DNA of 50,000 bases from Chiloscyllium plagiosum (Eukaryota): positions 1 through 50,000 of the forward strand of contig NW_025214731.1 in assembly GCF_004010195.1 (NCBI RefSeq), written 5' to 3'. Shown here one piece after another: positions 17,282 to 48,749 of the stretch; position 1 is the first letter of the stretch, and each line of letters begins with the position of its first letter. The notes under the pieces were generated by a model that worked only from the letters and a program-made list of their open reading frames with translations, searched no databases and had not been told where the DNA came from. The position numbers were made by a program, and so were the translations under genes.

Positions 17282-18575
17282 TGTGAGATAAAGATGACTT
17301 TTAACACAAGCTGTTACTGGCAATCAAAAAGACAAAAAGCTTTTATTTATTCACGAGACTAGGCCTGGAAGTAAACCGCACACTGGTTCTTGATCAAAGA
17401 TTTCTGTAGATGCTTCATCACCACAGAAGAGCATAATGTTTAAACAGACAGCAAAAGTTGGCTATTAATGAGGTCATTACCTGGGATTAGCTGCAGCAAG
17501 TCCGGAAATGACCTTATTTTCAAGCATATGGCAAATGTTGAATGGGAACTGGGACCTCAAGGAGGAGATGGTCAGTAAGTCAGAGACAGGTCAGAGTTGG
17601 AATTGGGTTTTAGACTGTATTTTCTGTGAGAATGAATCTGACTGCTGATATTACAGCATGGAGACAGCATGGCTCCCTGTCTAACCTCTCATGAACAGTT
17701 CTTCAAAGCTCAGAGAAGAGAAAACCAAGTTATAATTATTACTGCCTTTTTTGGAGAGAACTGCAAAATTGACCCTGATCAGCATCGTCAGAAAAATCAA
17801 CAGAGAAACCATCATTTACTCCTGTGGAACAAGCCAACAAGAAAACCACTTAATAATCTGGTCAGTTTTGTTACTTGCTTTTGTGCATCTTTTACTGCGT
17901 TTGTCTGTCTTCTGTGAGATGAGGTGGAAAACAAAGGCATTTGGGTTTAAAACATTGATCAATTAGATTTTAGACTCGGTTGTTTAATGTTACTCTAAAG
18001 TTATTATATTGTTAATAAATTGCTTAAATCTTTTTCTTAAAGATACAGACTGATACCTGAATTGCTTATTGGCAGAATCTGGGATTAATTATTCACAACT
18101 GAAAATGTGTTGCTGGAAAAGCGCAGCAGGTCAGGCAGCATCCAAGGAACAGGNNNNNNNNNNNNNNNNNNNNNNNNNNNNNNNNNNNNNNNNNNNNNNN
18201 NNNNNNNNNNNNNNNNNNNNNNNNNNNNNNNNNNNNNNNNNNNNNNNNNNNNNNNNNNNNNNNNNNNNNNNNNNNNNNNNNNNNNNNNNNNNNNNNNNNN
18301 NNNNNNNNNNNNNNNNNNNNNCTTATGCCCGAAACGTCGATTCTCCTGTTCCTTGGATGCTGCCTGACCTGCTGTGCTTTTCCAGCAACACATTTTCAGC
18401 TCTGATCTCCAGCATCTGCAGCCCTCACTTTCTCCTCCTTAATTATTCACAAGTCTGATTAGAAACCAATGGAGGTCAATTTTGAGGCCCCTTGAAGGTA
18501 TTAATTTTACTGAGTTGTGATTACAGAATAGAAAGGCTGATTTGGTTCATGTATCTGAGACCTCTGAGCTGGCAT
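17282..18575 (+). mobile_element. possible degenerate solo LTR
   Basis: Starts with TGTG, has an internal AATAAA near 18014 and LTR-like composition; no convincing TSD, boundaries uncertain. Confidence 0.3.
18099..18438 (+). mobile_element. palindromic PLE terminal-repeat insertion (copy A)
   Basis: Inverted arms around an N gap (18154-18321); TSD TTAATTATTCACAA at 18085-18098 and 18439-18452. Confidence 0.85.
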
Positions 18576-19014
18576 GAATTTTCCTCTCAATATGTAGTGT
18601 CAACCTGCTGAGAATTTCCAGCGGGATTCTGTCTTAATTTCAGAAACCCAGGATCTCCTGTACATTGTTTTATATTATATGAAAATGTTTTTAAAACAAG
18701 GGAAAAATGAAAATAGCTGCCATTTCAGTCAGAGGTTTTAAATAGGGGTCACATTTTAAACGAGAGCACAATTCAGACTATGTTGGATCTTGGTCTAACC
18801 CATAGTTAACGACTACCCTCAAAACAGGCAACGAAGCACAAACACAAAAAACAGTAATTTCTGGACCGTGCATATAACATCTCTGAAGATAACAGATTCA
18901 ACTGTAAGAAGTAATAATTGTTGCTAACCCAGTCCAATCTTCAACCACCCCAACTTTTCTAGGGTCTTCCCAGCGTATTCCTATGTAAAACAATAGATAA
19001 ATCAATTTTTACAC

Positions 19015-19475
19015 TGTTCTCAATGGCTCCAAATACGCCATCCAGGTCATAAATAAATTTACCTGTAACTCCTTCCACCTTACAAATTTTTCTGGATATG
19101 AAGGAAACCATAGAGCAATTTTTCACTCAGAGTAGTAGGGGCATGGAATGCACTGCCTGCAACAGTAATAGACTCGCCAAATTTAAGGGCATTTAAATGG
19201 TCATTGGATAGGAATATGGACAAGAATGGAATAGTGTAGGTTAGATGGGCTTTAGATTAGTTTCACAGGTCGGCGCAACATCGAGGGTCGAAGGGTCTGT
19301 ACTGCGTTGTAATGTTCTATGTGAAGCATTTAGAGAGCCATTGCAGACTCAACAGGTCTCTTTCACCACCATAAAGATTGTGTGATCGTGTGTCTGAACA
19401 CCCCATTTTTGTGCACACTACCTCAAATGTAATCTCACATCGCCACTATTCCCACACCGATCTTCTCATTTCTCC
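19015..19475 (+). mobile_element. Penelope-like GIY-YIG endonuclease relic, interrupted by a CR1 fragment
   Basis: GSKYAIQVINKFTCNSFHL and RLCDRVSEH...HSHTDL resemble the PLE motifs FTCxSxNLIY and RLxDRFxEH. Confidence 0.55.
19105..19323 (+). mobile_element. CR1 3' fragment (GTTCTAT-tail subfamily)
   Basis: Translates to VVGAWNALP; UTR ends in GTAATGTTCTATGT. Confidence 0.85.
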
Positions 19476-19489
19476 AGCCCAACTGAATA

Positions 19490-20148
19490 CAAGATTTGGG
19501 GGAAAAAAATTGCTAGAACCAGAGGTCACAGTCACAGGAGCAGATTTAAACAGAGAGGAGGAGAAGTTACTTCTCTCAAAAGGTCACAAATCTGTGGAAT
19601 TCACTATCCCAGAGTGCAGAGGCTGCTGGGACATTGAGTCAATTTAAGGAGGAGATAGACTTTTAATTAGCAATGGTTTGAAGGGTTATGGTGGGCTAGG
19701 AGGAAAGTAGAGTTGAGGCCAAGTGAGATCAGCCATGATGGTACCAAATGGCAGAGCTGAATTAGCTCCCCCCATATCTAGTTCTTGTGTTTTAAAAGTA
19801 TCTGGGCAGTCAGCAACAGTATCTTAGTATTGATTTGATGAACATCAACTCTCAGCTATATTGGAGAATCCAAAAACCAGTGACCACAAAGACAAGCTAG
19901 TAACCAATTATTTCAACAGGAAATTCAGAGGAATTAACGTACCCAGAACGCAAGTAGAATGTGGAACTTGCAACCACAATGGAGTGGGTGAGGCAAATAG
20001 CACAGATGCATTTATGCAAAGTTCGATAAACACAGAAAGGAGAAAAGAACAAGGAGGTTGTGCTGATAGAGTTATTTCAACCGGGCACTGCCATGGTTGA
20101 GTTGGACTGAATGCGCTGTATCTATGCTGTACATTCTGGTATTCTATG
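19490..20148 (+). mobile_element. two consecutive old CR1 3' fragments
   Basis: CTGTGGAATTCACTATCCCAGAG and ATGTGGAACTTGCAACCAC (WNxLP-region homology), each followed by a CR1-type UTR. Confidence 0.65.
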
Positions 20149-20149
20149 T

Positions 20150-21985
20150 TGAGTAGCTTTTTCATAGTAGAGTAGCTTTTTATTTGTCATTTCTACCATA
20201 TACAACTGTTACAGTAAAAATGAGACAGCATTCCCCCAGGACAGAGGGTGCTACATGGACAGCACAAACTACACAATCGTACACGGCATAAAGAGCCTAC
20301 AAAGTGGAAAACACACAAGTTACAGTGTAACAGAAGAATGATAAATAATGGACATTTTTCTAGCAGCAATTCAAAGTCGTGCAAAGAATTTCAGATGTGA
20401 AAGAGTCCGATCATACAGAGTTAAGGAGCCAGATGGCTTGGGGGAAGAAACTGTTGCAGTCTAGCCATGAGAGACTGAATGCTCTGGTACCCCCTGCTAG
20501 ATGGCAGGAGGGAGAAGAGTTTGACTGAGGGGTGTGTGGGGTCTTCCACAATGCGATTCGCCTTTCAGATGCAGTGTGTGGTGTAAATATCTGTAATGGA
20601 GGAAGGAGAGGCCCCAATGTTCTTACGAGCTGTTCTCAATATCCGTTGTAGGGTCTTACGGTCCAAGACGGTGCAGTTCCCAAACCAAGCAGTGATACAG
20701 CAGCTCAGGGTATCCTCAATGAACCCCATGTAGAATGTGGTGAGGATGGGGAGTGAAAGTTGGGCTTTCCTCAGCTTGCGCAGAAAATTCAACACGCTGC
20801 TGGGCTTTCTTGCAACGGAGCTGGTGTTGAGGGTCCAGGTGAACACCAAGAAATTTGGTGCTCTTCACAATCTCCATGGTGGAGCCGATGTCCAGCAGAG
20901 AGTGGTTGCTCTGTGCCCTCCTGAAGTCAACAACCATCTCTTTTGTCTTGACCACAATCAGAATCAGGTTGCTGGCTCTGCACCAGTCCGTTAGCCGCTG
21001 CACCTCCTCTCTGTATGCTGATGAGACCCACTACAGCTAAAGCATCAGCATCGTTGCACAGTTGTGTGTCAGCAGAATGAACAGCAGTGAACTGAGCACA
21101 CAGCCCTGGGGTGTTGGAGATGTTGTTCCCAATCCGGATAAATTGAGTTCTCCTAGTCAGGAACTCCAGGATCCAGTTGCAAGGGGAGATATTTAGGCCC
21201 AGCAGACCCAGCTTTCCAAACAGGTGCAGAGGAATGACAGTGTTAAGTGCAGAACTGAAGCCTGTGGATGGTAATCTGATGTAGGTGTCCTTTTTCTCCG
21301 GGTGGGTGAGGGCCAGATGGAGGGTGGCGAAAATGGCATTATCAGTTGAGTAGTTGGGTCGACACATGAACTGCAGGGTGTCCAGCGAGGAGGGCAGCAG
21401 GGTCTTAATATGACTCATCATGCGTCTCTCAAAACACTTTGTGATGATGCGTGTTAGCGCAACAGGGCAGTAGTCGTTGAGACAGGACATTAAAGACTTC
21501 TTCAGCATGGAGGTAATAGTAGCTGACTTAAAGCACATTGGGACTATGGCACAGCTCAGGAAGATGTTGGAGATGAAAGTGAGAACATACAGCAGTACAT
21601 CAGAGCATCCCCTGACCACTCTGCTCAGGATGTCACCTGGCCCAGCAGAGACCCCTTACATGGGTTGACTCTGCATCAGGTTTTCCTCACTTGGTCGTCG
21701 GGAGGGGGAGTGGACCTCCTTGCTGCCACGTTATTTCTTGCCTCAAACCATGCATAAAAAGTTGTTCAGCTCATCTGGGAGAGAGGCATCACCAGCACAA
21801 GCAGGCGATGCTGTTCTGTGGTTGGTGATGTCATGGATGCCCTTCCACACGCTCCACATATTGCCCCTGTCCTGAAAGTGGCCGTGTATTCTCTGTGCGT
21901 GTGCTCACTTTGCCTCTGTGATGGCCCGGGTCAGGTTGGCCCTCGCTGTTGGTAGGGCCACCTTGTCATCTGCTCTGAAGGTGGA
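20150..21985 (-). mobile_element. Rex1/Babar-clade LINE, RT region to 3' end, decayed
   Basis: SCLNDYCPVALT..TKCFER, STDNAI..TLHLALTH, KTKEMVVDFRR, KFLGVHL, CITAWFGNC; short AGTAGCTTTTT repeats at the 3' end. Confidence 0.9.
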
Positions 21986-22004
21986 ATAGTGTCATTTTAA
22001 CTTC

Positions 22005-23135
22005 CAGCTTGACCATCAGTGGTGGGCAAGTTGTTGGGGGGAATCCTGAGGGACAGGATGTACATGTATTTGGAAAGGCAAGGACTGATTAGGGCTTTAT
22101 GGCTTTATGTGTGGGAAATCAAGTCTCACAAACGTGATTGAGTTTTTTTGAAGAAGTAACATAGAGGATTGATGGGGGCAGAGCGGTAGATGTGATGTAT
22201 ATGGACTTCAGTAAGGCATTCGACAAGGTTCCCCTTGGGAGACTGGTGACCAAGGTTAGATCTCATGGAACACAGGGAGAACTAGCCATTTGGATACAGA
22301 ACTGGCTGAAAGGGAGAAGACAGTGGGTGGTGGTGGAGGGTTGTTTTTCAGACTGGAAGCCTGTGACCAGTGGAGTGCCACAAGGATCGGTGCAGAGTCC
22401 ACTATTTTCATCGTTTATATAAATGATTTGGATGTGAGCTTGAGGTACAGTTAGAAAGTTTGGAGATTACACCAAAATTGGAGGTGTAGTGGACAACGAA
22501 GAGGGTTACCTCAGATTACAACAGGATCTTGATCAGATGGGCAAATGAGCTGAGAAGTGGTGGATGGAGTTTAAGTCAGATAAATATAAGGTGCTGCATT
22601 TTGGGAAAGCAAATCTTAGCAGGACTTATACACTTAATGATGAGGTCCTAGGGAGTGTTGCTAAACAGAGAGACCCTGGAGTGCAGGTTCATAGTTGAAA
22701 GTGGAGTCGCAGGTAGATAGGATAGTGAAGGCAGCGTTTGGTATGCTTTCCTTTATTGGTCAGAGTATTGAGTACAGGAGTTGGGAGGTCATGTTGTGGA
22801 GGGACATGGATAGGATAAATAGACAAAGTCTTTTCCCTGGGGTGGGGGAGTCCAGAACTAGTGGGCAGAGGTTTAGGGTGAGAGGGAAAGATATAAAAGA
22901 GATCTAAGGGGCAACGTTTTCACTCAGAGGGTGGTACGTGATGGAATGAGCTGCCAGAGGAATTGGTGGAGGCTATTGCAACATTTTAAAGGCATCTGGA
23001 TGGGTATAAGAATAGGAAGGGATAGGGGCCAGGTGCGGGCAGGTGGGACTAGATTGGATTGGGATATATGGTCGGCATGGACGGGGTGGACCAAAGTGTC
23101 TGTTTCCATGCTGTACATCTCTATGACTCTATGTC
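22005..23135 (+). mobile_element. HER1/CR1 LINE RT-to-3' fragment with an internal deletion near 22798
   Basis: YMDFSKAFDKVP, SGVPQGSV; CTCTATGACTCTATG tail. Confidence 0.93.
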
Positions 23136-23446
23136 TCGACATTACATTTCTATTCTGTGTAATTGCAAACACTGTAATGTGACCTACACCAAAAGGCTTA
23201 CTTGAGGAAATGAATTCCGGATCTTAAAGTAATGAGAATTTCACTTACTGCAGCAATTGGAACATTTCAGATCAAACATAATGTCAAAGTTTAAAAGAAC
23301 TGAAGGACAAAGATTGTCATAATTTACTTTGTTATCTTAATTTAACAATTTCTGAACACATCGAATACAAGGTTGGCTGTACCTTAGCTTCAGAAAACTT
23401 CCATTATCCACAGCAAAAGCATCCAGTTTAAAAGTTCAACTCTGAA

Positions 23447-23600
23447 CAGAAGCAAAACACAGTGGATACGAGAAATCTAAGATAAAACAAAAAAGAGCTG
23501 GAAAAACTTGAGGACCTCAGGGAGCATCTGTGGAGACACAGTTAAAGTTTCAGGTCAATGACCTTATAACAGAGGTTTCATCAGAAAAAAGGTCATTGAC
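23447..23600 (-). mobile_element. old PLE terminal-repeat remnant with inverted piece
   Basis: Minus strand AAGGTCATTGACCTGAAAC...CCACAGATGCT...TTTTTCCAGC; 12-bp inverted repeat 23554-23565 / 23589-23600. Confidence 0.55.
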
Positions 23601-25932
23601 ACTGACCGACATGGAGTCAGGATTCCACAAGATAGTCACTGTTATCTAGTGTAAGGCCAACATTTCTTATATAGCCTTAGAACCACTGCCTTCAGCAAAT
23701 ATAAGACACACTGCAATAGAACTAATAGTTTGCAAGACCATTGCATAAGGCAGTTAAGAGTGAACTACTATACCAAGGATCAGGAATCAAACAGAGAATG
23801 GATTGGGTAAGGACAACTATTTCCTTTCCATTTTGTCCACAAAAGTCATTTAGGGATCTTTTAAACAATCTAGCTAAATGCTGACATCCAACTTCTTAGC
23901 GAATTGACTTTTAACTCCCTGGTGGCCATTGTTGAATTTGAACTCGTCTGTCAATTTTTAGCTGCCTCTGGATCACAAGCCCTGTTCCATCATTGCATGT
24001 GATATTGTACAACCATCTGTTCGCATATAAATTTATCCTGAATAAAGAGAAACAAAGAAATCTATAACCACGCTCCTTGCTAATTACCTGAACAAGTACA
24101 AAGAAAAGCTTCCCAATGTGAAGGGGCTAGCAACCATTAGTGAACAGAAATCCAGAGAAAAGGAACAGCCCAAGAGAATTGAGAGAAAAATGTGTTTCCT
24201 ATTTGGTTTTATTAAAACTTGCCAAAACATCAAGTTTGAGGTTACAGCTTTTGTCTGTTTTTGTTCTTTCTTGAAGGGACAGTGCTACCACATCACATGT
24301 ACTTCACTATGCAGACAGACTGACAATGTGATTATCACTGCAACTGTCTTAAATTTATGGTTTCCTTTGGTATTAAGTATGCACAGGGGAAAAACTGCAT
24401 CAAGACTCTGAACCAGTTTAGCAATTAATAAACAGTGCCTTAAAGAGAATTTGCATTTCAATTGAGTAAGACTAGGGGCTAAACTAACTACTGAAAATTT
24501 ATTTCATCAAGGTGAGGTATTCTCAGTGTGAAGTTTGACAGTTTTCTCATTTTAAATGCTACATCACCAAGTAGTTAAAATACAGGAAAAAACTGAGAAA
24601 GCATAATGCGCCTCTCACAGAAAACAGTTGACAATGTGCCTGAATGACATCTGAAAGTACTTCACCAGATGACGTATATTTTCCAAATCAGTTATTAAGA
24701 GTGCTGAATCAGTGACATTCATGGTCACATCTCCTGAATAGTTCCAAGCATGTTATGAATTGGGAACTTCCCAGCCCAACTTATTCAGAGTCGAGAGGAT
24801 TGGCATCAAGCAGAGGCCTCGTGGTTCAAGTCCCACTCCAGGATGGGATGGCCATGGAAGACATAGTCAACCTCTATCACCATGTTATGACTGTTATGGC
24901 AGGTAATGAGGACACAAGAATCTCCTGACTTGACATGAAGAGGTGTCTTCTAAGCTACAAGCTCTAGCAACATGCTAATGACCTGTGGCAGGAATATTCA
25001 GCTATGGAAATGCATGTTTCATATGTCATAAAGCTTGGAAAAGCCCCCTTTACAACTGCATTTTAAAATTTCTTTCATGAGATACAAGCATGGCCAGCAT
25101 TTAAGACCCAGCCATAATTGTGCTTCAGTAGTGACTAATTGAGCTCTTTGAGAGACTAATTGCTAGACACAGATCAATAAGGCGAGACAGAGTGGATAAT
25201 AGCCGACAAATGACAAACAATCCCCAGGCATATAAAAATGATAGCACAAATAAAAAAACTGCAGAAACACTGAAACCAGGCTAAAGGAAGAAAACCACAT
25301 AGAGAAACAAGAAACAGGAACTGGCATACAGCCTGTGTGGGTGGATCTTTTTGGCAGAAAAATAATTACAGCTCACCACGAATTAAACTGAGGTGCAGGA
25401 GGTCAAGAACATGACCTAAGAAGCTTGAGCTAGAGAAAAACACATGGGAGATGATCACTTCCCTAAAACCATTAGACAATGTGATGAAAACTTTATTATC
25501 ATCAACGCCCAACCTTTCCTTGGTCTCAAGTGAGAAGGAATATCTTCATCCTCCACTGGCTGGTCAAAGTCAGCCAATATTTGGAGATTTTAAAAAAATC
25601 ACTCTCGGCTTACTTATCTTGGATTTGTTTGCAAACTGATCTGATTAGATACTACAGTACCACTGAGCCACTGATGTGAAAATGTAACAACTCTTGGCAC
25701 TTTTTTTGATCAGCTCTGTTTCACATTTCATTGATGTCTCTCTAAACTCTTGTTAGCCCAGTTTTACAGGCTAGGCTTTTAAAATCAATGATGAACAGTA
25801 AACATTTTAAAGCCACACACAAAACCACAAATATCTTAAAGTCAAGAATTGTTCAGAAAACTTGCATCAACACACCCACTTTAACAAGCTGACGCAGTCT
25901 GATAAACACAGGAAGAGCACTCCTGCTGTTAC

Positions 25933-26068
25933 CCAATATCGTAGCAACATGTCTGCTTCACCTCTGTCACTGTGCCTCACAGCTTTCTGTCATTCATTAT
26001 CAGTCAGCCACACTTCTGAGTAATTTGGAAATAGTGTTGTCACACCCCGAAGCAAAATACAAGGAATG
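25933..26068 (-). other. candidate non-coding exon
   Basis: Branch-like CTTAAC, then TTCACTTTGTTTTCTTCAG| acceptor; weaker donor TGG|GTAACA. Confidence 0.3.
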
Positions 26069-26384
26069 CTGAAGAAAACAAAGTGAATACAGTTAAGGGG
26101 AATGTACGGGCTATTTCCAATTTTCTAACTTCACTAAATTTCCTCAGTTACAGGAAGTAGACAGTTTGGCAGAATGTTTGTCATAATATTCCATGCTATG
26201 GCCATGGAGAAAATTCCTTGATAATTCCACATGATTTCTTTGCCTTTCTTTGCGGATAGTTACATTTGCTACTTTCTCGAAGCCAGCATGGAATTCTTTT
26301 ACCTTTTGCCCATTTGACTTGGCCTTTGCCTGATCCTTGGTCACTTCAGATATGTTTACTTGGTGAACATATGGTCAGATCTCA

Positions 26385-26714
26385 GAATCATAGTATCCCC
26401 ATGGCACAGAAAGAGGGCATTCGGCCCATCAAGCCTGCACTGACTTGCCAAAAGAGCACGTACCCAGATCCAGCCTCCCATCCCCTTAACCTTGCACTTC
26501 CCATGGCTAATCAGTTCAACCTGCACATTCCTGGACATTATGGGCAATTTCCCATGGTCAATCTACCTAACCTGCACATCTTTGGATCTGTGGGAGGAAA
26601 CGGAGCACCTGGAGGGAACCCACGCAGACACAAGGGGAATGTGAAGTCATTCAAGGCTGGAATTGAACCCGGGTCCTTGGTGCTGTGTGCAAACTACTGA
26701 GCTATGGTGCCACC
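26385..26714 (-). mobile_element. HE1-type V-SINE inserted in the RTE relic
   Basis: V-domain and B-box GGTTCAATTCC; CTCA on both sides. Confidence 0.9.
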
Positions 26715-27096
26715 CTCATGTGCTTTTACTTCCCATCATGTGACCTTTACCTTCCAGATTTCTTTTGGGTGTGAGACTTCAGCTCTTGGAATGTTGCCTT
26801 CTCGACTCGTGACCTTAGATTGTTCTATTAGGCCATAAAGGCTGCTTGTTTTCGTTCCAGGAAGTCCCTCAGTTCAGCATTTTCATTAAACCAGTCACAA
26901 AGGATTTTATCAAAATTTGCAAAAATCCTCCAATTTACCTATCTGACAACATTGCTTGCACCTGATCAAAGGAGTCTAGGAGAGCTACTGTTACTTAATA
27001 TCCCTGTTCAGGATCTGTGTTGAACGGGAGAGTTTTCCAGATTGGTAATTGCTGCACTTGGAATTCCTCTCTTCAGTAGGGCTGCTTTAGAGCAGA

Positions 27097-29443: not shown

Positions 29444-30608
29444 GATAGAGTCATACAGATGTACAGGACAGAAACAGACCCTTCAGTCCAAACCTGTCCA
29501 TGCCGACCAGATATCCCAACCCAATCAGGTCCTACCTGTCAGCACCTGCCTCATATCCCTCCAAACCCTTCTTATTCATATACCCATCCAAATGCCTTTT
29601 AAGTGTTGTAATTGTACCAGCCTCCACCACTTCCTCTGGCAGCTCAATCCATGCACATACCACCCTCTGTGTGAAAAAGCTGCCCCTTTTTGCTCTCTTT
29701 TATATCTTTCTCCTCTCACCCTAAACCTCTGCCCTCTAGTTTTGGACTCTCCCACCCCAGGGAAAAGACTTTGTCTATTTATCCTATCCATACCCCTCAT
29801 AATTTTGCAAACCTCTATAAGGTCACCCCTCAGCCTCCGATGCTCCAGGGAAAACAGCACCAGCCTGTTCAGCCTCTCCCTATAGCTCAAATCCTCCAAC
29901 CCTAGCAACATCCTTGTAAATCTTTTCTGAACCCTTTCAAGTTTCACATCATCTTTCTAATACGAAGGAGACCAAAAGTAAACGCAAAATTCCAACAGCG
30001 GCCTAACCAATGTCCTGTACAGTCGCAACATGATCTCCCAACTCCTGTACTCAATACTCTCGCCAATAAAAGAAAGCATACCAAACACCTTCTTCACTTC
30101 ACTACTTTCCTCATTCCTGAAGAAGGGCTTATGCCCAAAACGTCGATTCTCCTGTTCCCTGGATGCTGCCTGACCTGCTGCGCTGTTCCAGCAACACATT
30201 TTCAGCTCTGATCTCCAGCATCTGCAAACCTCACTTTCTCCTCGAAGATTTTAACCTTCTTCACTATCCTATCTACCTGCGACTCCACTTTCAAGGAGCT
30301 GTGAACCTGCACTCCTTTGTTCAGTAACACTCCCCAGGGCCTTACCATTAAGTGTATAAGTCCTGCTAAGATTTGCTTTCCTAAAATGCAGCACCTGCAC
30401 TTATCTGAATTAAACTCCATCTGCCACTTCTCAGCCTGTGGGCCCATCTGGTCCAGATCCTGTTGTAATCTGAGGTAACTTTCTTCGCCGTCCACTACAT
30501 GTCCAAATTTGGTGTCATCTACAAACTTACTAACTATACCTGTTATGCTCACATCCAAATAATTTATGTAAATGACAAAAAGTAGAGGACCTAGAACCGA
30601 ATGTCCTT
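29444..30608 (-). mobile_element. HER1/CR1 RT-to-3' fragment carrying a PLE insertion
   Basis: SVLGPLLFVIYIN, SKFVDDTK, LERVQKRFTRM; tail present. Confidence 0.94.
30099..30253 (+). mobile_element. single-arm PLE terminal-repeat insertion (copy D)
   Basis: CTGAAGAAGGGCTTATGCCCAAAACGTCG...CTCACTTTCTCC; TSD ACCTTCTTCACT at 30087-30098 and 30254-30265. Confidence 0.85.
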
Positions 30609-30610
30609 TA

Positions 30611-30706: not shown

Positions 30707-30885
30707 GCTGGAGATTAGAGTCAAGATTAGAGTGGTGCTAGAAAAGCACAGCAGGTCAGGCAGCATCCGAGTAGCAGGAAAATCAACATTTTGGACATAA
30801 GCCCTTCATCATCCCAAAACGTCGTTTCTCCTGCTCTTCGGATGCTGCCTAACCTGCTGTGCTTTTCCAGCATCAGACTCTTGAC
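30707..30885 (-). mobile_element. palindromic PLE terminal-repeat insertion (copy F, sister subfamily)
   Basis: AAAAGCACAGCAGGTCAGGCAGCATCCGA and TCGGATGCTGCCTAACCTGCTGTGCTTTT form inverted arms that meet in the hammerhead motif. Confidence 0.8.
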
Positions 30886-31470: not shown

Positions 31471-31739
31471 AAGAACATTTGGGGGGGGGGGGGCTTATGG
31501 AAAAATTGACAAAGCTGCTTTACCAATTAGACAACCGTCAGCTGTCATGCCTTAGGTCTCTCCTTCACCACAATTAGCAACCCCTTTGACTTTGGTTGTG
31601 AGCATCCTCACAATCTCTCCCACCCATTTCTCCCCTACTTCTGTCTCCAGCCCTGATACTACGATTTTCTGATCCCTTTCAATCCTGAACAAAAGTCACA
31701 TACTGGACTTGAAATGTTAACTGTTCCACAGATGCTACC

Positions 31740-31869
31740 TTTCTGAAGAAGGGCTTATGCCCGAAACGTCAATTCTCCTGCTCCTCAGATGCTGCCTGGC
31801 CTGCTGCGCTTTTCCAACACCACACTTTTCAACTCTGGTATCCAGCATTTGCAGTCCTCACTTTCTCCT
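31740..31869 (+). mobile_element. single-arm PLE insertion (copy E) inside an older PLE end (about 31680-31910)
   Basis: Intact core CTGAAGAAGGGCTTATGCCCGAAACGTC; TSD ATGCTACC at 31732-31739 and 31870-31877. Confidence 0.82.
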
Positions 31870-31989
31870 ATGCTACCAGACTTGCTGAGTTTCTCCAGCA
31901 CTTTTTTTCCAGCACCTAAATACTGTGGCTGCAAAAGCAGGTCAGAGGCTAGAAATCCTGTTGCAAGTTACTCATCTCCTGACACCTCC

Positions 31990-33235: not shown

Positions 33236-33930
33236 CTACATAACCAATTTCCTATTCTTGAAAATGTGATCAAATGTGATTTAAGTACAGTTACCTGTAA
33301 GGAGTAATGAGTTGATTGACCAGGCAACCTGGCCTTGTAGAGTCAGTTGACACATGAACATTACTGAAAGTACTACAACACTTTTAGATACCACATTGAA
33401 GTAATAGCCAAGGCACACTCCAATTCCCACAGCAGTCTTCAATTGACAACCTTCTGACTCACAGACTAGAATGTTGCCATGCGCCAACTTTTAGTATCAT
33501 GATCACCACCTTTCATTTTGCGCACACTTCTTGATTTGATTGATGTGTAAAGAATGCAGAGACTTCTTCAGGCCAAACCCTGAGCAAGATAATTCCTGTT
33601 TAAAACCAAATTTAAGAGGAAATGTCTGCAAAGTCATTTATTAGTCATAGTAATTAGCTACAAGATTGACAGAAAGAAACTCTTCATTTCGAAGAACTGA
33701 ACACTTGGAAACCCACAGAGCAGCTCCCTCTAAAATAGCATTAATGACACAAATGCCATGCAAGTGAAGTGAGAAACCATCACAGCAACATCCCTGGAAA
33801 AATCCACTGCTTTTTATAACATGACGCTTGGAATCTTTCCTGAGAAGGTAATATTAAAACAAAACAAAAGGAGTTATCATTTGCAAAGATAACTTGAATT
33901 TAAGTTGCAGCTTTGCTGTCTTTGTAATTA

Positions 33931-34121
33931 GCTGAAAATGTGTTGCTGGAAAAGCACAGCAGGTCAGGCAACATCCAAGGAGCAGGAGAATCGATGTTTC
34001 AGGCATGAGCCCTTCTTCAGGAAAGAAGCCCTTGGCTCCTTGGGTGCTGCCTGACCTGCTGCGCTTTTCCAGCAACACATTTTCAGCTCTGATCTCCAGC
34101 ATCTGCAATCCTCACTTTCGC
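33931..34121 (+). mobile_element. palindromic PLE terminal-repeat insertion (copy B)
   Basis: Inverted arms; TSD CTGTCTTTGTAATTA at 33916-33930 and 34122-34136. Confidence 0.88.
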
Positions 34122-34649
34122 CTGTCTTTGTAATTAAGCAATCATACAAAAAGATTTAGCAGTATTCTCTCGGTACCTTCTACCACATTCTCTCAACCGT
34201 CAAGAAGTGCATCTGTGAGATTTACCAACTAATTGCACATAGCAGCTTTAATAAATATATTGCACTGACTCAGTGTAATGTTTAGTTGTATGGATGGAAA
34301 AGGGGTAGCATTATAATTTATACAAATTCAATGGTAGCTGAGGTTAGTTATTCTGTGAACAACTTTACAACACAGACTTAACAACGACAGTATGTCAGCA
34401 TTTTTAAAACCTGACTCTCTTTTTTCATTTGCAATGCACATCAGCATGTTTCAACCAATGTTCAGATAGCACATTCACATAACCCTACTTGCCCTGAGCA
34501 GACTACAACATGAACAAGGCAGTAAAGCTCTATGTTCTGCTTTCATTGCTCTCAAAGCTATGTCAGGTCTCAATGTGCCACATCCCCCCCTGCAGCCAGC
34601 GCTGCCCCACCCCCCACCCCCACCCCCAGGTGAGAGGGTGGCGGTGAAC

Positions 34650-38290: not shown

Positions 38291-38306
38291 CAAAGTCATA
38301 TTGAAG

Positions 38307-38378: not shown

Positions 38379-38435
38379 CTAAAATATATTGGCATGGACT
38401 GAGGAGTTTACAGAGAGGAAGCAGAATAGGAAGAA

Positions 38436-40900: not shown

Positions 40901-40974
40901 CTGTGACTTGTAGGATACCAAAGATCAAAGCTTGCACCCCAATCATTCATAATCTGTCACAATTATTTCAATAT

Positions 40975-41815
40975 AGGAACCAAAGATAATATTTCCAAAG
41001 TTGCAGATGATACTAGGTCACAACCTTCATTGCATTGATGGTGTGAAGAAGTTTCAAGGAGATTCAGACAGGATGTGAGAGTGGAAAAGAACGTGGCAGA
41101 TGCAGTATAATGTGACTCAGTGTGAAGTTGCCCATTTTGGTAAGAGAACCAGAGCTGTAGACTTTTCTTTTAAAACAGTGAGAGAACAGGAAATGTTGAT
41201 GTTGAAAAGGACTTGTATTTACTTGTTTATAAGGCACTGAAAGCTATCATGCAGGTGTACTGAGCAATTAGGAAGGCAAACAGCTTGTTGGCATTCTCTT
41301 CTATAATCCAATCCTCTTGCAATAAAGAGGTCTTGTTGCAGTTGGAAAGAACATTGAAGAGTCTGCACTGGCCTTTGTGTCATGGAGGTATACCAGACTA
41401 ATTCCTGGGATGGTGAAACTTTCCTATTAGGAAAGATTAAGACGAGTGTGTTCCCATGAGTTTAGAAGAATGAGAAGTGATTTCATTTAAACATACAAAG
41501 TTCTTAAAAAGGGCAAGATTGGGTAGATGGAGGAAAGATGTTTCCCCAAGTTTTATGGAGGCGTGGGGGAAGGTGCCCAGAACCAGGGAGTCGCAAAAAT
41601 AAGGAAAAAGCTGTTTAGGACTGAGAAGAGGATAAATTTCTTCATTCCGCATCTCAGTAGTTGTGGCTGTGGAAGCTCAGTTCTTGAGTAAGTTCAAGAC
41701 AGTAGATGCTAATAATCACAAGGAATAGCACAGAGAAATAGAATTGAGATAAATAATCAACCTTAATTTAACATAGTGGGGGTGGGCTCAAGGGGCCAAA
41801 TTCACGCTCCTATGT
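40975..41815 (+). mobile_element. old CR1 RT-to-3' fragment
   Basis: ISKVADDT, WQMQYNV..CEVAHFG; decayed C-terminus. Confidence 0.8.
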
Positions 41816-43171
41816 TCCAGAAATATCAGGTTCTCCTCATGCACCTCTTCACAATTGCTTCAAAAGTGGGATCAAAGGAAAACATGTAACAGCCTGCTGC
41901 ATCAGGGAATTATGTTTGTTAAGTGTCAAAACCGAAACACTTCAATTTTTTTGTCGCAGCAAGTGTTGGCTTGAATGTCACCTAACAGTGCACAAGTCAG
42001 TTGAGAATAAAAATGACAAACATTTCTTCTCAGAGAGATTTGCAATTGGGGTTTTTACTATATAACAAGTGATTGTGAACAGAACTCCATTGGACTGTGA
42101 ATAATTGAGCTGATTCAGTCATATTGAATTCGCTTCTATTTCCACATAACCAAGACCCGAAAAATTAGGCTCCATTCAGACAAGTTAATCCAAAGCCCAA
42201 CTGAACTGTGGGTACTGTTTCCTGCTTTTATAATTTCAGAAAGCGATCAGACATCAAAGTTTCAAAAATAGTTTCAAAGGCTGAAAGCACCAATAGCACA
42301 CAATTCATAAACTGCACCATTTTAACATATGAGATGAGCAATTTAACAAGTTAATAATTTGGATGTTACAACTACTTAAAATATAAATGTTTGAAGTTTG
42401 TATCCATCACAAACTAAGGTGTCACGACAACAGCTAATAAGCAATGACCTAGCTTTGAAAGGAGAACAGTAATAAGTTCATAACTAGGAACATAGTTATG
42501 ACCTCATTTTGCCTGTGTGAATACTAACCAGTTAGGCCTCTTACAAATTTGCTGGATATCCAGAAAAGGGCTATTAAAAGTTCATACTTTTTAATTTTAA
42601 TAAATGATTGTTGTAAATCAATATTACCAAACCAGAACAGTAGTCACAATTCAAAGCATTATTAAACCTTCAACTCGATTCCTCTAATGCATCATAGGAT
42701 CCATGCAGAAAATATTGCTGACAAAACTACAAAGCAGTTCCAACATTTCATTTTAAGTTTTGTGGTTTCTTTTTGTTACTAAAAAATATTTTCATAATGG
42801 GTGGGTCGTGCATAAATTTGGAGTCTATTGACATCTTTTTATATAGATAAAAAAGGATTCTCAATTCAGTCTCAGGTCCCATTGAGTTAGATAATCTCAG
42901 TTGGTGCAGTGAGGATTCTGGACCATTTCCCTCAGTATTCTCTGAAAAATAAGCCCAGCTGGAGGGAAAAAAAATATGCATTTGTCTTGCATTTTTTGCA
43001 ACCACTTAAGGCTCTTACGTATCTTTGAAGTGTAGTCACTGTTGTCAGTTGGGACCAGTTATCATTACAAATTTGCTAAAAACAATGCATGTATGTCAGA
43101 TTTAAGGTCTCTGTGGCGGAAGGGGTCAGGTATCTCTATTGATACTTAGGAAAGGCTCACATGCAGAATAT

Positions 43172-43710
43172 TTAGTCCTAGAAATGTACAGCACGGAAAC
43201 AGATCCTTCGGTCCAACTCGTCCAAGCCATCCCGATACCCTAACCTAATCTAGCCCCATTTGCCAGCATTTGGCCCATATCCCTCTAAACCCTTCCTATT
43301 CATATACCCATCCAAGTGCCTTTTAAATGCTGTTATTGTACCAACCTCCACCACTTCCTCTGGCAGCTCATTCCATACACGTACCACCATCTGCATTAAA
43401 AAGTTGCCCCTTAGGTGTCTTTTATATCTTTCCCCTCTCACCCTAAACCTATACCTTCTTTTTCTGGACTCCCCACCGCAGAGAAATGACCTTGCCTATT
43501 TATCCTATCCATGCCCTCATGATTTTATAAACTTCTAAGATCACCCATCAGCCTCCGACGTTCCAGGGAAAACAGCCCCAGCCTATTCAGTCTCTCCCTG
43601 AAGCCCTAACCCTCCAACCCTGGCAACATCCTTGTAAATCTTTTCTGAACTGCTTCAAGTTTCACAACATCCTTCTGATAGAAATGCACGCAATATTCCA
43701 AAAGTGGCCA
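43172..43710 (-). mobile_element. HER1/CR1 3' fragment
   Basis: VVRVWNELPEEVVE...FKRHLDGYM. Confidence 0.92.
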
Positions 43711-46324
43711 AGATTACTCAAACTTTGCACCTTTTGGAGTGAAAACAAAATGGAGAAATTTGCTGAGGGAGAAAACAATACGGATAGACAAAATGTCAGA
43801 TACTCTGTGATTGTCATCACAATTGTAGAAACCAATTGCATACATAAATGCAATGTACTGATGAGCATAATGTGTTGTTTTCAATATTGCGAACAATGTG
43901 TACCTTCCTCTGAGCATTGTCATTATAACATGACAAACTGTACCTTGACTGCCACAGTCAGACTACACTGTAGGGATTCTATGTTTCCATATTGATTCTT
44001 TATTAAGTGAAAACAGAAGTTGTCATTCATAATGTACATAGACCCAAATGCTTAAGTGTTGTGAAAGTGATAAAGCAAGTTATTGATTTTATGTGAGCAT
44101 TTTGTCAGTTACACATGATCAGACCTGCCAAGAACTGTGCTTAAATATGTTTTCCTGAGGCCTCATTACCATTTGCCAGAACTAACAATTTTGCACTTCC
44201 CCCCCCTCCATCACTTCCTTCTTCCCACCCCTACTCCCCAGAAAGCAGACAGAAGCTTTGGCTAAAGTGCTCTTTTTGATTAAATTGCATGTAGCTGAGA
44301 CCTGACACAATCTCCACTCAGGTCTTTGGTCAAAAGACCACTTCAATTGTGTTAGGGAGTAAACTCCATTCTATAACACACAGCATGCGCAGGCTGCTAG
44401 TGTTGTCACAGGGTCATAAAACAACTTCATTCATGCATCCAACTGTTCCCAGTGGGACAGTGAACATTTGACCAGACAAAGTGGACATTCATTTATCCAG
44501 ATCCATGCCAAACACTCATATTTCAAGGTCTACCAGGGGTCAGCAGCATGACTTTAAACAATATTAAAACAGTCAACCAACTTGCTTTACAAAAACCATT
44601 AGAAATAAAAAGATTAGTTACATCTAAATCACAAAACTTATTAAAAATTACTCATACTTTTAAAGAAGTGTTTCTTACTCTATTCAATAATGGGTTTCCG
44701 GATGGGTTTGTATGATAAAACAATATATGCTCTGAACTCATTAAAGTGTATAATGTGATGTACGTTCAAGACAAGTACAGTCATGCAATGTGAAACTGTA
44801 AAGAAGACAAATTCTCTTTATTTTGGCTGGTTCTGTTCAAGCATATTCACTGGCCAACTCGCATTTACAATGACGTTTAGGACTGGTCAGCTGACCGATT
44901 TGACAGAGCACGATTCTTCTAGATGGAAATCGCTTCATGAATGAATTGAAAAGACTTTTATGTCAGTGTGCATTTTTAAAATGCCACCCATTACGATAAA
45001 CATGACAAGTGCCGAACTTGCTTTAATATTCAACAGGCCGCGTGAACCACGTCTCTATTCTCTGATAGCAATTATAATCATCATAACTAATATTTGTGGC
45101 CAAATATCATATCTGTTTAATTATTTGGCAAGAGAGTAAATAAATATCTCAGTAGATCAAGCACTTATGGCTTCTTCCTGAATTTGGGGGAAAATCTCAA
45201 TGAAAACGGACAGCAAGCATTTGTTTATTTTTAAAAAAACGTCCAATTTTTCTGGATTTTCACTCAACTGTATTCAAGGGTAAGAGGCTCAGAACAAATA
45301 AGAAAACAGACAAACTAAATAGGGCAGCTTTTTCAGTTGGGTAAGAATGCGGCTGTTCGAGGGCAATCCATTTTTTTTTAAACCATCCTTCCTGTTGAGA
45401 TACCTTAATTGCTGTATCTTCAATTTGACACAGCAAACGTTCCAATAAAGTGCCTGGTTTCCTAACATTACAATGAAGTGTAAATTGCACGGACAGCGTT
45501 TTCCATGCAATGTTTCTAATTAGGGCGCGAAACCATATCAACATTTTAGTTATTTCAGAGTGTAGACAGTCTATTTTGACAAGAGTTTTATGATAACCAC
45601 ACAGTCACAATATCTGTGTGAAGCCTGAAGACCACCCAACCCCCAATGGGAATAAATTCTCTGAAGGAAACACATTCATTGTTTTCTTTAACTACTATTG
45701 GGGCGACAAGTCAAATTGTATCACCACGGTGACAGGCCGAACGGTCGACTTCTGTCCATTAATATTCTGCATTTAAAATCCAAGCATTTATTGTTCCCTG
45801 CCGCACGTGAAAACTAATATTGTTACTATACAGAAACCAGTCCCTTGTTGAAACTCGTTTCCACACATGCACTAGCACAAAGCACACCAATCGACAATAA
45901 ACAGAGTTGCACTGCTCAGTTAAGGCTGAGGTAAAAACGCCGCCGAGTCTCCAAACATTAAGGGTCATTTGCAGGCGGTTCCAGCTCAATGTTGTCTGCC
46001 CCAGGAGGATGAATGTAACAATTTGACAATACGGAATTATATTAGATAGTGGGGAAACTGGAACCTTCCCTCTCAAAATCTTGACTGGGTTTCCCAAGCG
46101 ACCTTTGTTTCCTCGGACTATCCTGGGCGTTCGGACCCAGGTAACCGGATCGCTCGGAAACAAATGAAGCACACGTCCTGATAACGAGAGAGAGAGAAAG
46201 AGCGCGCTTCGAAGTTCCTGAACGAGGCCAAAATAAAACTCTTCCCATCTAAGAGTCACTGTTTTACATTGTTGTGTAGCAGAAATCAACTCAAAACATT
46301 GCACCCAGAAGCAGATCTGCTTAC

Positions 46325-46440
46325 CCGAAGCGTTGTGTTTCTCCGTGTAGTCGGCTTCTCAGCCCTGTCTCAGTTGAAACTTCTTGTTGCTACTTTGTTG
46401 CACCGTTGTATCGCCGCCGGTGGAGCTCTACAGCAGCTCC
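46325..46440 (-). other. putative non-coding first exon of an unidentified minus-strand gene
   Basis: Donor CGG|GTAAGC at 46325/46324, no ATG, just downstream of the ZNF143-type motif; 5' end approximate. Confidence 0.55.
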
Positions 46441-46446
46441 CTCTCA

Positions 46447-46465
46447 GCCTTCTGGGAGATGTAGT
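46447..46465 (-). promoter_or_regulatory. ZNF143/THAP11 (SBS) motif
   Basis: Minus strand ACTACATCTCCCAGAAGGC matches the ACTACAnnTCCCA(G) promoter motif. Confidence 0.75.
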
Positions 46466-46819
46466 TCACTTGTTTGGCAATTAGTTCCAGCAAACATATC
46501 TCAACCTCATCTTCACCGGTTTACAGTTTGCAATTGTCTGTCTACAGTCTACTTCAGATCGAAAACTTGCATAAAGAGAGCGTCAGTTTAGGGCTAATAC
46601 CTCTTAAACCTGTCAACTTCCGTTGATTTTGGGTTATCATCCTCTAGTTTGGCTGACCACAGAAATTTGCCACCATCCTCCCACGTGCAAGTTATGATCC
46701 TCACCACCATTGTCCCTATCTCTTGTGAAGAAACTAAGATGCTGAGGTATCGTACCAAGACAATTATCCTTCTTCCTGGCTATTATACTGGGGCTCATTT
46801 CCAACAAATTACTCAGAGG

Positions 46820-46990
46820 CCTGATGAGAATTTACAGAACTAGGCAGGAAAATATTAGCTGCATTGCACTGCCTTCAAACCTAACCACAATCACTCCAAC
46901 CTGATCTCCAATGTGACGATGTGTGCTGCTCCTTCAGAAACTGACCTCAAGATCATGATTGACTTTTTCTCCAAAGCTTTTGAGGAAAGA
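46820..46990 (+). mobile_element. RTE-clade RT relic
   Basis: DDVCAAPSETDLKIMIDFFSKAFE resembles RTE ADD....SE.DLQ...D.F..A. Confidence 0.55.
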
Positions 46991-46994
46991 GGAG

Positions 46995-47150
46995 GTGATG
47001 TTATAGCAGGACTATTAACCCAGAGACTGAGTAACATTCTGGGGAACTGCGTTCAAATCCAACTAAAAGTCTAATAGTAGCTGAGAACCCATTGCTGTTT
47101 GTTGTGGAAAAGCCCATTTGATTCAATGTCTCTGTTCTTTCCCTAAAGGA
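46995..47150 (+). mobile_element. SINE 5' half (family of 7440-7750)
   Basis: GGACTATTAACCCAGAGAC...GTTCAAATCC...GAAAAGCCCATTTGATTCA. Confidence 0.6.
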
Positions 47151-48032
47151 TATCAAATTCTCAGTTAATTTTTTTCCCCAAAATCAGATTGATAGTTGGT
47201 TTCTAAACTTCATTAACAGCTTATTTAATAATAAATAATCCAGTGCAGCTACACTCATTCCCCCCTGTTTTCTCTCAGGTATTAAAAACAGACCCTGAAT
47301 GGTGGTAAAAAATCTTTGATCAGTATAAACCTCTCCCCCCCTTATAACTTTCTTCCTGCTTCTATTCCAGATTAATATTTGGATTAACAGTGCCATGATA
47401 AGGAAGAGAATTGAGTCCCATGCTTTAATTTCTGTCAGTTCTGTAGTTTTGGTGTTTGTGGAGTGAACCTGATACATTTGCTTTGTTGTCAAAATTGCCA
47501 AAACTGTCCTTGTCATTGAGTCACAGAGTCATGTCGTGAAACTCCAATTTTCATTGCACATGATGATCTTGCTGAAAGATAATGGATGTGGAAAAGAAAA
47601 AGAGTTGCATTTATAGAGCACTCTGATATCTACCTAACATTTCAAAGCATTTTACAGCCAATTAAGTCTAGATTGAAATGTGGTTACTTTTGTAATGTAC
47701 AATACGTAGAAGTCCAAGTCTTGCTTCATTTGGGCATGAGCAGCACAATGTCCAAATACAACAAGACCTGGATAGTATCCAGCATGATAAATGATAAGTA
47801 AGTCAACACCCAAATAAACACAGGGAAATGACCATCTCAAGGGAGAATCTAACTATCATCCCTTGACATTTAATAGCATCACCATCACTGATTCCCCCAG
47901 TAACAACAGGGATGGAGGTTACCATTCTCCAGAAACTGAACTGGATTAGCCATATAAATACTGTGGCTACAAGAACAGGTCAGAGGGTACGGTGAATTCA
48001 CCCCATGACTCTCCAAAGCCTGTCCATCATCT

Positions 48033-48260
48033 GAAAAATGTTTTGCTGGAAAAGCGCAGCAGGTCAGGCAGCATCCAACGAGCAGGAGAATCGACGTTTT
48101 GGGCATAAGCCCTTCTTCAGGAATGAGAGCCCTTCCTGAAGAAGGGCTTATGCCCGAAACGTCGATTCTCCTGCTCCTTGGATGCTGCCTGACCTGCTGC
48201 ACTTTTCCAGCAACACATTTTTCAGCTCTGATCTCCAGCAACTGCAGTCCTCACTTTCTC
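48033..48260 (+). mobile_element. palindromic PLE terminal-repeat insertion (copy C)
   Basis: About 90-bp inverted arms, 9-nt spacer, hammerhead motif in both arms; TSD CCTGTCCATCATCT at 48019-48032 and 48261-48274. Confidence 0.9.
48133..48166 (+). ncRNA. minimal type I hammerhead ribozyme motif (PLE-type)
   Basis: TTC-CTGAAGA-A-GGGC-TTAT-GCCC-GAAA-CGTC-GA: core boxes, 4-bp stem II, palindromic ACGT, GUC triplet; activity not shown. Confidence 0.6.
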
Positions 48261-48749
48261 CCTGTCCATCATCTACAAGGCACAAATCAGGAGTGGGATG
48301 GAATGCTTCCAACTTACCTGGATGGATGTAGCTCTAACAACACTCAACAAACTTCACACCATCCAGGACAAAGCAGACCGCTTAATTGGCACCACATCCA
48401 CAAACATCTATTCCCTCCATCAAAAAGTTTGCATTATATACAGTGTTTCAAGATGGCTCTGGAACATGGTGGCACTTTGCATACAACACGCGAAAAACTC
48501 TTCACTTTTTGTATACGTGACAATAAATCTAAATTAATGCTCAGTAGTAGAAGTTTAGCCAGATGCATTGCAGAAATTCACCAAGGTTTCTTAGACACCA
48601 TCTTCCAAACCCACGAACACTACCAGCTAGAAGAATATCGGAACAACACCCCTGCAAGATCCCTTCCAAGCCACTCACCATTCTGACTTGGAAGTACATG
48701 GCCATTCCTTCAGTATCGTTGAATGTGATCCAGGAACTCTCCATATGGT

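Follow-up and report, generated by a model that had tools for sequence, protein, structure and literature searches.

Six insertions of one repeat family

The window, that is, the whole 50,000-nucleotide stretch of Chiloscyllium plagiosum DNA analyzed here, harbors six related insertions, beginning at positions 18099 (copy A), 30099 (D), 30707 (F), 31740 (E), 33931 (B), and 48033 (C) (Table 1). All six insertions of the original prediction proved to be real, since self-BLAST connected six out of six and the 20-mer core of the repeat was matched 10 times in the window, compared to 0.00 times expected. The copies amount to 1,054 called bases, or 2.1% of the window, and the two DNA runs contained 51,724 and 46,316 contig pieces of the repeat family. 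The insertions are probably stubs of a Penelope-like element (PLE), derived from its ribozyme-bearing end; such insertions form a class that is already known, and the family is very abundant in C. plagiosum.

The hairpin shape assigned to the whole set held for copies A, B, C, and F, which are mirror-image hairpins, but not for D and E, which are single arms, thus reducing the hairpins to four of the six. As the center of copy A coincides with a gap of 168 N, only three hairpin centers (B, C, and F) are visible. Copy F belongs to a second subfamily, differing from the arms of the other copies at 7 to 11 of 50 columns, and lies in the opposite orientation with a shortened tail and no target site duplication (TSD). 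Copy D begins with a 5-nt re-copy of the TSD end (30099 to 30103) and runs 11 nt past the usual tail end. The older remnant into which copy E was inserted gave a local score of 64, exceeding 1,000 of 1,000 shuffles (maximum, 51.5).

Table 1. Parts of the six insertions and of the older remnant, in window coordinates
Feature	Position	Strand	Remarks
Copy A left TSD, 14 bp	18085..18098		second occurrence 18439-18452
Copy A inverted untailed arm	18099..18153	-	outer end at proximal site; N gap 18154-18321 in place of inner part
Copy A tailed arm	18322..18438	+	3' half of hammerhead, body, tail of ~37 nt
Copy A right TSD	18439..18452
Copy D left TSD, 12 bp	30087..30098		second occurrence 30254-30265; within CR1-type LINE fragment
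Copy D single arm	30099..30253	+	unit starts 30104; hammerhead G12 lost; tail
Copy F tailed arm	30707..30811	-	second subfamily; tail shortened; hammerhead broken; no TSD
Copy F untailed short arm	30814..30884	+	outer end at proximal site
Older, different pLTR-like remnant	31683..31915	+	decayed hammerhead; host site of copy E insertion
Copy E left TSD, 8 bp	31732..31739		second occurrence 31870-31877
Copy E single arm, 130 nt	31740..31869	+	from recurrent 5' end to tail end
Copy E intact minimal hammerhead	31743-31770	+	helix I C-G changed to U-A
Copy B left TSD, 15 bp	33916..33930		second occurrence 34122-34136
Copy B inverted untailed arm	33931..34023	-	extends to recurrent 5' end
Copy B left-arm hammerhead core	33993-34020	-	without dimer palindrome
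Copy B center insert	34024..34034		contains 7-nt re-copy of left arm
Copy B tailed arm	34035..34121	+	5'-truncated by 40 nt; without hammerhead
Copy C left TSD, 14 bp	48019..48032		second occurrence 48261-48274; last 2 nt common to arm end
Copy C inverted untailed arm	48031..48127	-	extends 4 nt beyond tailed arm in 5' direction; G12 of hammerhead lost
Copy C center insert	48128..48132		start of re-copied piece found in B; joined via 3-nt overlap
Copy C tailed arm	48133..48260	+	intact minimal hammerhead 48136-48163

Target site duplications and outer ends

All five TSDs that had been claimed were recovered as exact flanking direct repeats, while the longest direct repeat flanking copy F is 5 bp. 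With random flanks drawn from the window as the null model, the probability of a repeat of at least 8 bp is 0.037, of at least 12 bp 0.001, and of at least 14 bp 0.0003. By length alone, only the 8-mer of copy E is thus weak, yet it exactly abuts both ends of the insertion. One of the five TSDs is strongly AT rich (86%) and the other four range from 50 to 73%, which weighs against the explanation favored below; the window itself is about 59% AT.

The outer geometry foreseen for copies A, B, and C is common to all three, with a tail of about 37 nt on one arm. Expressed in copy D coordinates (used for all end positions and variant sites below), the outer end of the untailed arm falls at 30204 to 30206 in four of four hairpins, narrowing to 30205 to 30206 in A, B, and C, and the tailed arm ends at 30240 to 30243 in copies A, B, C, and E. 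Across the genome, loose ends whose flanks are long, unrelated, and AT rich in their consensus pile up at 30241 to 30243 (1,362 contigs in DNA run X1 and 1,439 in X12). No pile at the proximal end appeared among the 24 of 779 loose-end rows listed, so that this end is defined by the four window copies. The summed depth of the body was 2.0 and 2.1 times that of the tail in X1 and X12, respectively, a ratio of word depth rather than of copy number in which the subfamilies are mixed. Depth just beyond the tail was 1.2 to 3.3% of that of the tail, indicating that longer copies exist. On the inner side, a 5' end at the hammerhead's front edge recurs among contigs of the DNA runs, often with a G before it; such ends concentrate about 30 nt upstream of, and not at, the hammerhead cut site (30144).

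These features bear on whether the family could consist of DNA-transposon MITEs or of non-LTR retrozymes propagated through circular RNA. The long inverted arms of four copies and the presence of a type I minimal hammerhead would suit such an origin. A MITE is nevertheless difficult to reconcile with TSDs that are long and vary from 8 to 15 bp, with a one-sided tail that makes the ends asymmetric, and with two single-arm copies. A non-LTR retrozyme is defined by direct units in tandem, every one of which contains a hammerhead (bioRxiv 10.64898/2026.07.22.740005). Such elements resemble the shark family in being ORF-less and pLTR related, in their type I hammerhead and in the occurrence of dispersed monomers, but differ in layout, which is inverted here, and in the location of the ends, which here lie away from the ribozyme cut site. 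Membership among them fails because tandem direct units are lacking: the window holds no tandem array of the repeat, and only rare joints that go back were seen among the contigs. We therefore regard an origin as retrozyme or MITE as very improbable.

The hammerhead ribozyme

The full descriptor of a minimal hammerhead was matched by 3 of the 10 arms, namely, the right arm of C, the arm of E, and the left arm of B, the last in spite of having lost the dimer palindrome; shuffled sequences gave a mean of 0.09 and a maximum of 1. Across the arms, 95.6% of 45 cells pair, with one two-sided change, which is not significant compared to shuffles (109/500). Isolated hammerhead and tail segments folded no better than shuffles, and no hammerhead match was returned by Rfam. 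Rfam hits to miRNA hairpin models (four) and to an lncRNA model (one) all lay below the gathering score and were rejected as generic. The listing for the poly(A) single-cell run showed no accumulation of RNA read ends, which a library of this type may not reveal.

The motif resembles the minimal hammerheads of metazoan PLEs (PMC4209133) in its core boxes, the extra nucleotide before helix II, G10.1-C11.1, the palindromic 15.2-16.2 and the short helix I, but in the shark family helix II has 4 bp and helix I only 2 to 3 bp. In a further point of resemblance, the metazoan motifs occur mostly solo or as opposite-strand pairs 100 to 700 bp apart (PMC4209133). One supplement file of that study contained no match to the shark motif.

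Hairpin centers and arm variants

The three visible centers all differ, joining 30114 to 30154 in B, 30110 to 30114 in C, and about 30118 to about 30134 in F. Among the 15 of 48 joints listed from the DNA runs, each was supported by 1 to 3 contigs per run, in a sample that is biased because short-read contigs rarely span hairpin centers. The centers of B and C contain the same re-copied 7-mer (34027 and 48128). In copies B and C, the untailed arm carries 40 and 4 nt, respectively, of family sequence missing from the tailed arm, and the tail is missing from the untailed arm. Each arm thus has sequence that its partner lacks, and neither can have arisen by plain copying of its partner. The two arms of B and of C diverge at 3 of 50 columns, which is not below the 2 to 4 of 50 between copies and also weighs against the explanation favored below. 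Copy C has a predicted folding energy of -175.8 kcal/mol and a nearly symmetric center.

Sequence variants are matched between the arms of a hairpin. Position 30155 is T in both arms of A and C in both arms of B and of C (C in about 47% of X1); an extra T, present in 2.4% of the X1 depth, occurs in both arms of C; and both arms of F are of subfamily 2. In this small sample of four hairpins, source variants are thus copy specific and not arm specific. Other histories, counter to the explanation that we favor below, could leave the same marks: later deletion for the short arm of B, conversion between arms for the variants common to them, and a common ancestor for the 7-nt center piece of B and C.

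We then considered how the two arms might have arisen. In one scheme, the PLE cDNA would fold back near the hammerhead and copy itself, while at the proximal site the endonuclease would resolve the second end. Palindromes seen where inverted copies meet have led to a published proposal of such self-priming (PMC3846280, Discussion), and "EN-mediated resolution" has been invoked (PMC8557442). It would directly give variants common to both arms, is in line with the near symmetry of the C center, and suits copy F equally well, as the tailed arm is the longer one there. But fold-back retains the whole first strand, so that the second arm cannot outreach the first without later deletion, while the untailed arms of B and C exceed their partners by 40 and 4 nt and lack the tail. 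Self-priming as a general explanation is, in our judgment, unlikely.

A second scheme retains the MITE-like shape with a retrotransposition mechanism: one or a few master hairpins would be transcribed and reinserted whole by PLE proteins. The identical 7-mer and outer ends of B and C, the ability of pLTRs to act in trans (PMC3846280), and the presence of family RNA on both strands in RNA run X21 are consistent with such masters. They are opposed by the four source variants found among the four hairpins, with agreement between the two arms in every case, by the rarity of all joints listed (1 to 3 contigs), and by the existence of single arms with TSDs. In addition, for B to derive from a C-like hairpin, about 40 nt would have to be deleted, the linker altered, and the extra T removed from both arms. 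The hammerhead and the priming region would also lie buried in a 93-bp duplex. We consider re-insertion of masters quite unlikely.

A proposed model of two-ended priming

The differing centers, the copy-specific variants, and the arm sequence mutually missing in two hairpins together speak for priming from two nicks rather than for simple fold-back or a MITE-like master. We hold it probable that the insertions are ORF-less products of an endonuclease-bearing PLE, made anew at each site by two-ended priming. In this model, an RT-GIY-YIG protein would cut both target strands with a stagger of 8 to 15 nt, giving rise to the TSD. One nick would prime copying of the pLTR RNA from a distal start site, the tail end, and the other from a proximal start site about 37 nt upstream, so that the two start sites would fix both outer ends and confine the tail to one side. 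Each cDNA would proceed toward the 5' end of the RNA, often reaching the recurrent stop where the hammerhead has its front edge. End joining of the two cDNAs via short overlaps and templated inserts would then yield variable centers. Priming from a single nick would leave a single arm, as in D and E.

The model draws on the TSDs, fixed outer ends, varied centers, source variants common to arms, and recurrent 5' end seen here, and on the two-strand cleavage and extension and the two RT start sites published for an anole PLE; we infer the PLE nature of the family's ORF, the two-ended priming, and the joining step. Of the two routes originally proposed, de novo formation at each insertion agrees better with the data than a retrozyme- or MITE-like master does. 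Copies B and C are explained by two-ended priming and not by simple fold-back. Their anatomy, the genome-wide ends, and published PLE structure all support the view of the copies as ORF-less integration products of a probable PLE whose outer ends are fixed.

Comparison with known PLEs

Units of endonuclease-positive PLEs (Penelope/Poseidon, Neptune) consist of a pLTR, an adjacent inverted 5'-truncated copy, a one-sided tail of 30 to 40 bp and a TSD (PMC3846280; PMC8557442; PMC2377424), the TSD measuring 8 to 10 bp (PMC3846280, PMC8557442). The shark insertions share with them the head-to-head inverted copy (four of six), the one-sided tail of about 37 nt, TSDs (8 to 15 bp here), frequent 5' truncation, an assembly gap at a hairpin, and an open frame through the tail. 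They differ in having arms of only 70 to 130 nt, in being ORF-less, with no ORF partner seen, and in their very high abundance.

In the Poseidon element of Anolis carolinensis (PAc), the two ends of the tail coincide with reverse-transcription start sites that have been mapped, and the protein cleaves and extends both target strands (PMC11167929). The shark family resembles PAc in its two fixed outer ends bracketing the tail, its upstream hammerhead, and its AT-rich flanks genome-wide; its two ends lie 61 and 98 nt from the cut site, compared to a stated start 85 to 92 nt past the cut in PAc. The part of PMC11167929 consulted contained no treatment of inverted hairpins or center joints, and neither it nor a literature search yielded a report of the recurrent 5' end with its preceding G.

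The view of these copies as an under-described system was therefore overstated. Inverted pLTRs with tail and TSD are in print (PMC3846280, PMC8557442), as are opposite-strand hammerhead pairs (PMC4209133), and the tail is accounted for by two RT start sites (PMC11167929).

Searches for an ORF partner, homologs, and a host gene

The 32-amino-acid frame through the tail of copy D had no match among 1.84 billion representatives, a weak blank, and only unnamed Atlas matches scoring below 0.9. Frames of 46 (D) and 42 (C) amino acids gave 4 and 5 candidates, none at an E value of 1 or less, likewise weak blanks. The repeat DNA had no matches in viral contigs, genome contigs, or plasmids. Metagenome matches to a 20-mer were rejected as chance in 17 of 17 cases, extending over at most 32 aligned bases. 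The core 18-mer was absent from the main texts of the literature and from one supplement file of PMC8557442. Comparison of 217 ORFs (210 of at least 48 amino acids outside repeats, plus 7 LINE frames) to Pfam at the curated cutoff returned no host-gene family and only retroelement-type hits, in a search that would miss short exons. A donor-like site lies near 46326 on the minus strand, and the intron envisaged around copies A, B, and F is putative.

RNA and editing

In RNA run X21, A>G changes were found at 15 places, compared to 4 in each DNA run, T>C at 12 compared to 6, and C>T at 15 compared to 13 to 14. The excess at A sites gave a Fisher P value of 0.005, while A>G and T>C together against all kinds gave 0.15, in a comparison dominated by a few loci and made between RNA and DNA of different individuals. 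Among the rows listed, A>G leaned toward the expected strand in 5 of 5 cases and T>C in only 3 of 6. Since the non-editing changes T>A at 30118, G>A at 30205, and A>C at 30194 were equally enriched, A-to-I editing is at most suggested by X21, and not for the window copies. From the predicted pairing of their arms, it is plausible that the hairpins could form double-stranded RNA and be substrates of ADAR.

Implications

As the class is known, the finding itself is ordinary, and its value lies in the data. A family this abundant breaks short-read assemblies and could supply many double-stranded RNA hairpins. The studies consulted leave it unsettled how the second strand and the inverted repeats of PLEs are formed, self-priming being set against other routes, and hairpins with mutually missing arm sequence can distinguish two-ended priming from fold-back.

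A joint reading, which we advance tentatively and consider possible but on the doubtful side, is that the usual template would be a discrete capped RNA with an initiator-like start at hammerhead helix I, copied as a unit of about 130 nt. The G before the 5' end would be the copied cap, and a dimeric PLE protein would prime both nicks on one RNA at the two start sites and jump back at the template 5' end, forming a new hairpin at each insertion. If this were true, the family would be a SINE-like parasite of PLEs that has seeded edited double-stranded RNA hairpins across introns, and its copies would amount to thousands of natural snapshots of how the second strand is made during PLE integration, a step that is unresolved.

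The six insertions and the anatomy of their unit

The window has the composition of repeat-rich animal DNA (41% GC, with CR1-type LINE fragments), and the related insertions of the original prediction are present at all six positions, with the claimed target duplications (TSDs) recovered as exact flanking repeats. No exact flanking repeat was found for copy F. The hairpin shape was confirmed for copies A, B, C and F, and copies D and E turned out to be single arms; overall, what had been observed was real and mostly correct. The centre of copy A is a gap of 168 N, copy D sits within a LINE, and copy F, which represents a second subfamily, is oppositely oriented and has a shortened tail. A pLTR-like remnant of another, older kind (window 31683-31915) received copy E at its corresponding body motif, so that related repeats may be targets of insertion.

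Features of the window. Inner ends are in coordinates of copy D, the reference unit
Feature	Window position	TSD (bp)	Inner ends
Copy A	18099 (start)	14	
Copy B	33931 (start)	15	30114 and 30154
Copy C	48033 (start)	14	30110 and 30114
Copy D	30099 (start)	12	30104
Copy E	31740 (start)	8	30114
Copy F	30707 (start)		about 30118 and 30134
Hammerhead-like stub	8160-8195		
CR1-type copy	8192-9125		
52-bp palindrome	9124-9175		
131-bp tandem units	14303-14567		
CR1-type fragment	22449-23136		
Splice-donor-like site, minus strand	about 46326		
189-bp inverted duplication	48750-48938 and 49314-49502		
13-bp tandem repeat	49301-49333		

At the start of the unit lies a minimal type I hammerhead, comprising the core boxes, one extra base, a 4-bp helix II and palindromic dimer bases, with a predicted cut site at 30144 (here and below, in coordinates of copy D). 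The full hammerhead descriptor was satisfied by 3 of 10 arms, compared with 0.09 in 100 shuffles. In helix I of copy E, a C-G pair is replaced by U-A; this one event does not reach significance. In all four hairpins the untailed arm has its outer end at 30204-30206. The tailed arm stops at 30240-30243 in copies A, B, C and E and extends to 30253 in D; the one-sided tail is about 37 nt long, and an open frame passes through it. The ATG of hammerhead loop II is in frame with this open frame in copies C and E (window 48150-48260 and 31757-31869), because one additional base precedes the tail; in copies A and D it is a later ATG that shares the frame. Six of the eight visible 5' ends fall within 30104-30118.

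Ends and abundance across the genome

Four runs were placed on copy D at 85% likeness; of each of the two DNA runs, about 84-85% was read. This yielded 51,724 contig pieces for organism A and 46,316 for organism B, and the two organisms may have insertions in common. DNA run X1 may come from the same source as the window. At 30241-30243 there was an accumulation of loose ends whose long flanks are unrelated to one another (at least 1362 and at least 1439 contigs in the two DNA runs). No pile of proximal ends, those on the body side of the tail, appeared among the 24 loose-end rows listed of 779. The ratio of body to tail depth was 2.0 and 2.1, and depth immediately past the tail fell to 3.3% and 1.2% of tail depth, all of these being summed word depths and not copy numbers.

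At 30113, a 5' end recurs next to flanks that are unrelated (at least 214 and at least 241 contigs), and the site fits the initiator consensus. The last base of the flank consensus before it is G in both DNA runs, and G is also the last base of all three inserts at joints landing on 30113, among the joints listed; each of the 15 joints listed of 48 has 1 to 3 contigs behind it. Some copies extend upstream of this point in sequence that they share (at least 42 contigs at 30104).

Formation of the hairpins

PMC11167929 demonstrates that the protein of an anole Penelope-like element (PLE) cleaves and extends both target strands, with reverse transcription beginning at two adjacent internal sites bracketing the tail. 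If both target nicks primed copying of the PLE RNA, one at the distal and the other at the proximal start site, the product would have fixed asymmetric outer ends, a TSD and a variable centre, exactly as seen, and a template jump at the 5' end of the RNA would give short re-copied inserts like the centres of B and C. These inserts are indeed short re-copies with the polarity of the untailed arm.

Both arms of a copy carry the same source variants: position 30155 is T in both arms of A and C in both arms of B and of C, an extra T, shown by 2.4% of the depth of DNA run X1, occurs in both arms of C, and subfamily 2 is found in both arms of F. The four hairpins therefore need four sources. The untailed arm, itself devoid of the tail, exceeds the tailed arm toward 5' by 40 nt in B and 4 nt in C; since each arm of these copies holds sequence that the other lacks, neither simply duplicates the other. 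Arm-shared source variants and the arm asymmetry in B and C support such two-ended priming, although later deletion or conversion could produce the appearance of either. Self-priming by fold-back is the published proposal for the origin of inverted copies, set out in PMC3846280, and copy F fits either route. The shared centre insert of B and C could also have been inherited from a common hairpin ancestor, and arm divergence inside B and C is no lower than divergence between copies, which counts against two-ended priming. The comparison covers only three centres.

Transcripts and editing

Copy C is predicted to form a duplex of 93 bp (-175.8 kcal/mol, z -23.9), which would bury its hammerhead. 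A poly(A) single-cell run, of which about 2% was used, contained family reads on both strands; of these 2955 reads, a single one crosses the ends of copy D. A>G changes were listed at 15 places in RNA versus 4 in DNA and leaned toward the expected strand; other changes were enriched in RNA to an equal degree, and a small number of loci dominate. A-to-I editing is suggested for RNA of the family, not for the six copies of the window. A splice-donor-like site on the minus strand follows a moderately GC-rich stretch, without Pfam support, and may correspond to the putative first exon of the original prediction.

Other repeats in the window

The window also contains an inverted duplication of 189 bp whose two copies are 98% identical and separated by 375 bp. 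It has no relation to the hairpin family, one of its inner junctions carries a 13-bp tandem repeat, and it represents either a recent templated insertion or an assembly artefact. A near-perfect 52-bp palindrome lies at an apparent deletion junction inside a CR1-type LINE. Adjoining the end of a LINE fragment is a short stub that resembles a hammerhead; it comes from another family and does not satisfy the full descriptor. The two parts of another CR1-type fragment match the CR1-type copy at 8192-9125 in altered order, suggesting a rearranged insertion, and two 131-bp tandem units (97% identity) containing a short interspersed repeat adjoin a gap of 56 N.

Relation to published elements

No RT/GIY-YIG partner of the repeat was found in protein and DNA searches, which were weak, and PLE membership therefore rests on four structural features. 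Among PLEs, PMC3846280 and PMC8557442 describe inverted adjacent copies, a one-sided tail of 30-40 bp and TSDs of 8-10 bp. Inverted termini that vary, together with a promoter inside the element, are reported in PMC2377424, and minimal hammerheads, solo or on opposite strands, in PMC4209133. By their structure, the six insertions appear to be PLE-type products, a class already described. Retrozymes, according to bioRxiv 10.64898/2026.07.22.740005, require tandem units; these are absent here, and retrozyme membership was rejected. Searches of the open-access literature, judged by their listings and by the papers cited here, brought up no paper on this family, on two-ended priming in PLEs, or on a G at the 5' ends of PLEs that derives from the cap. 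Of most value are two points: the use of arm asymmetry to test two-ended priming, and the G that precedes the recurrent 5' end.
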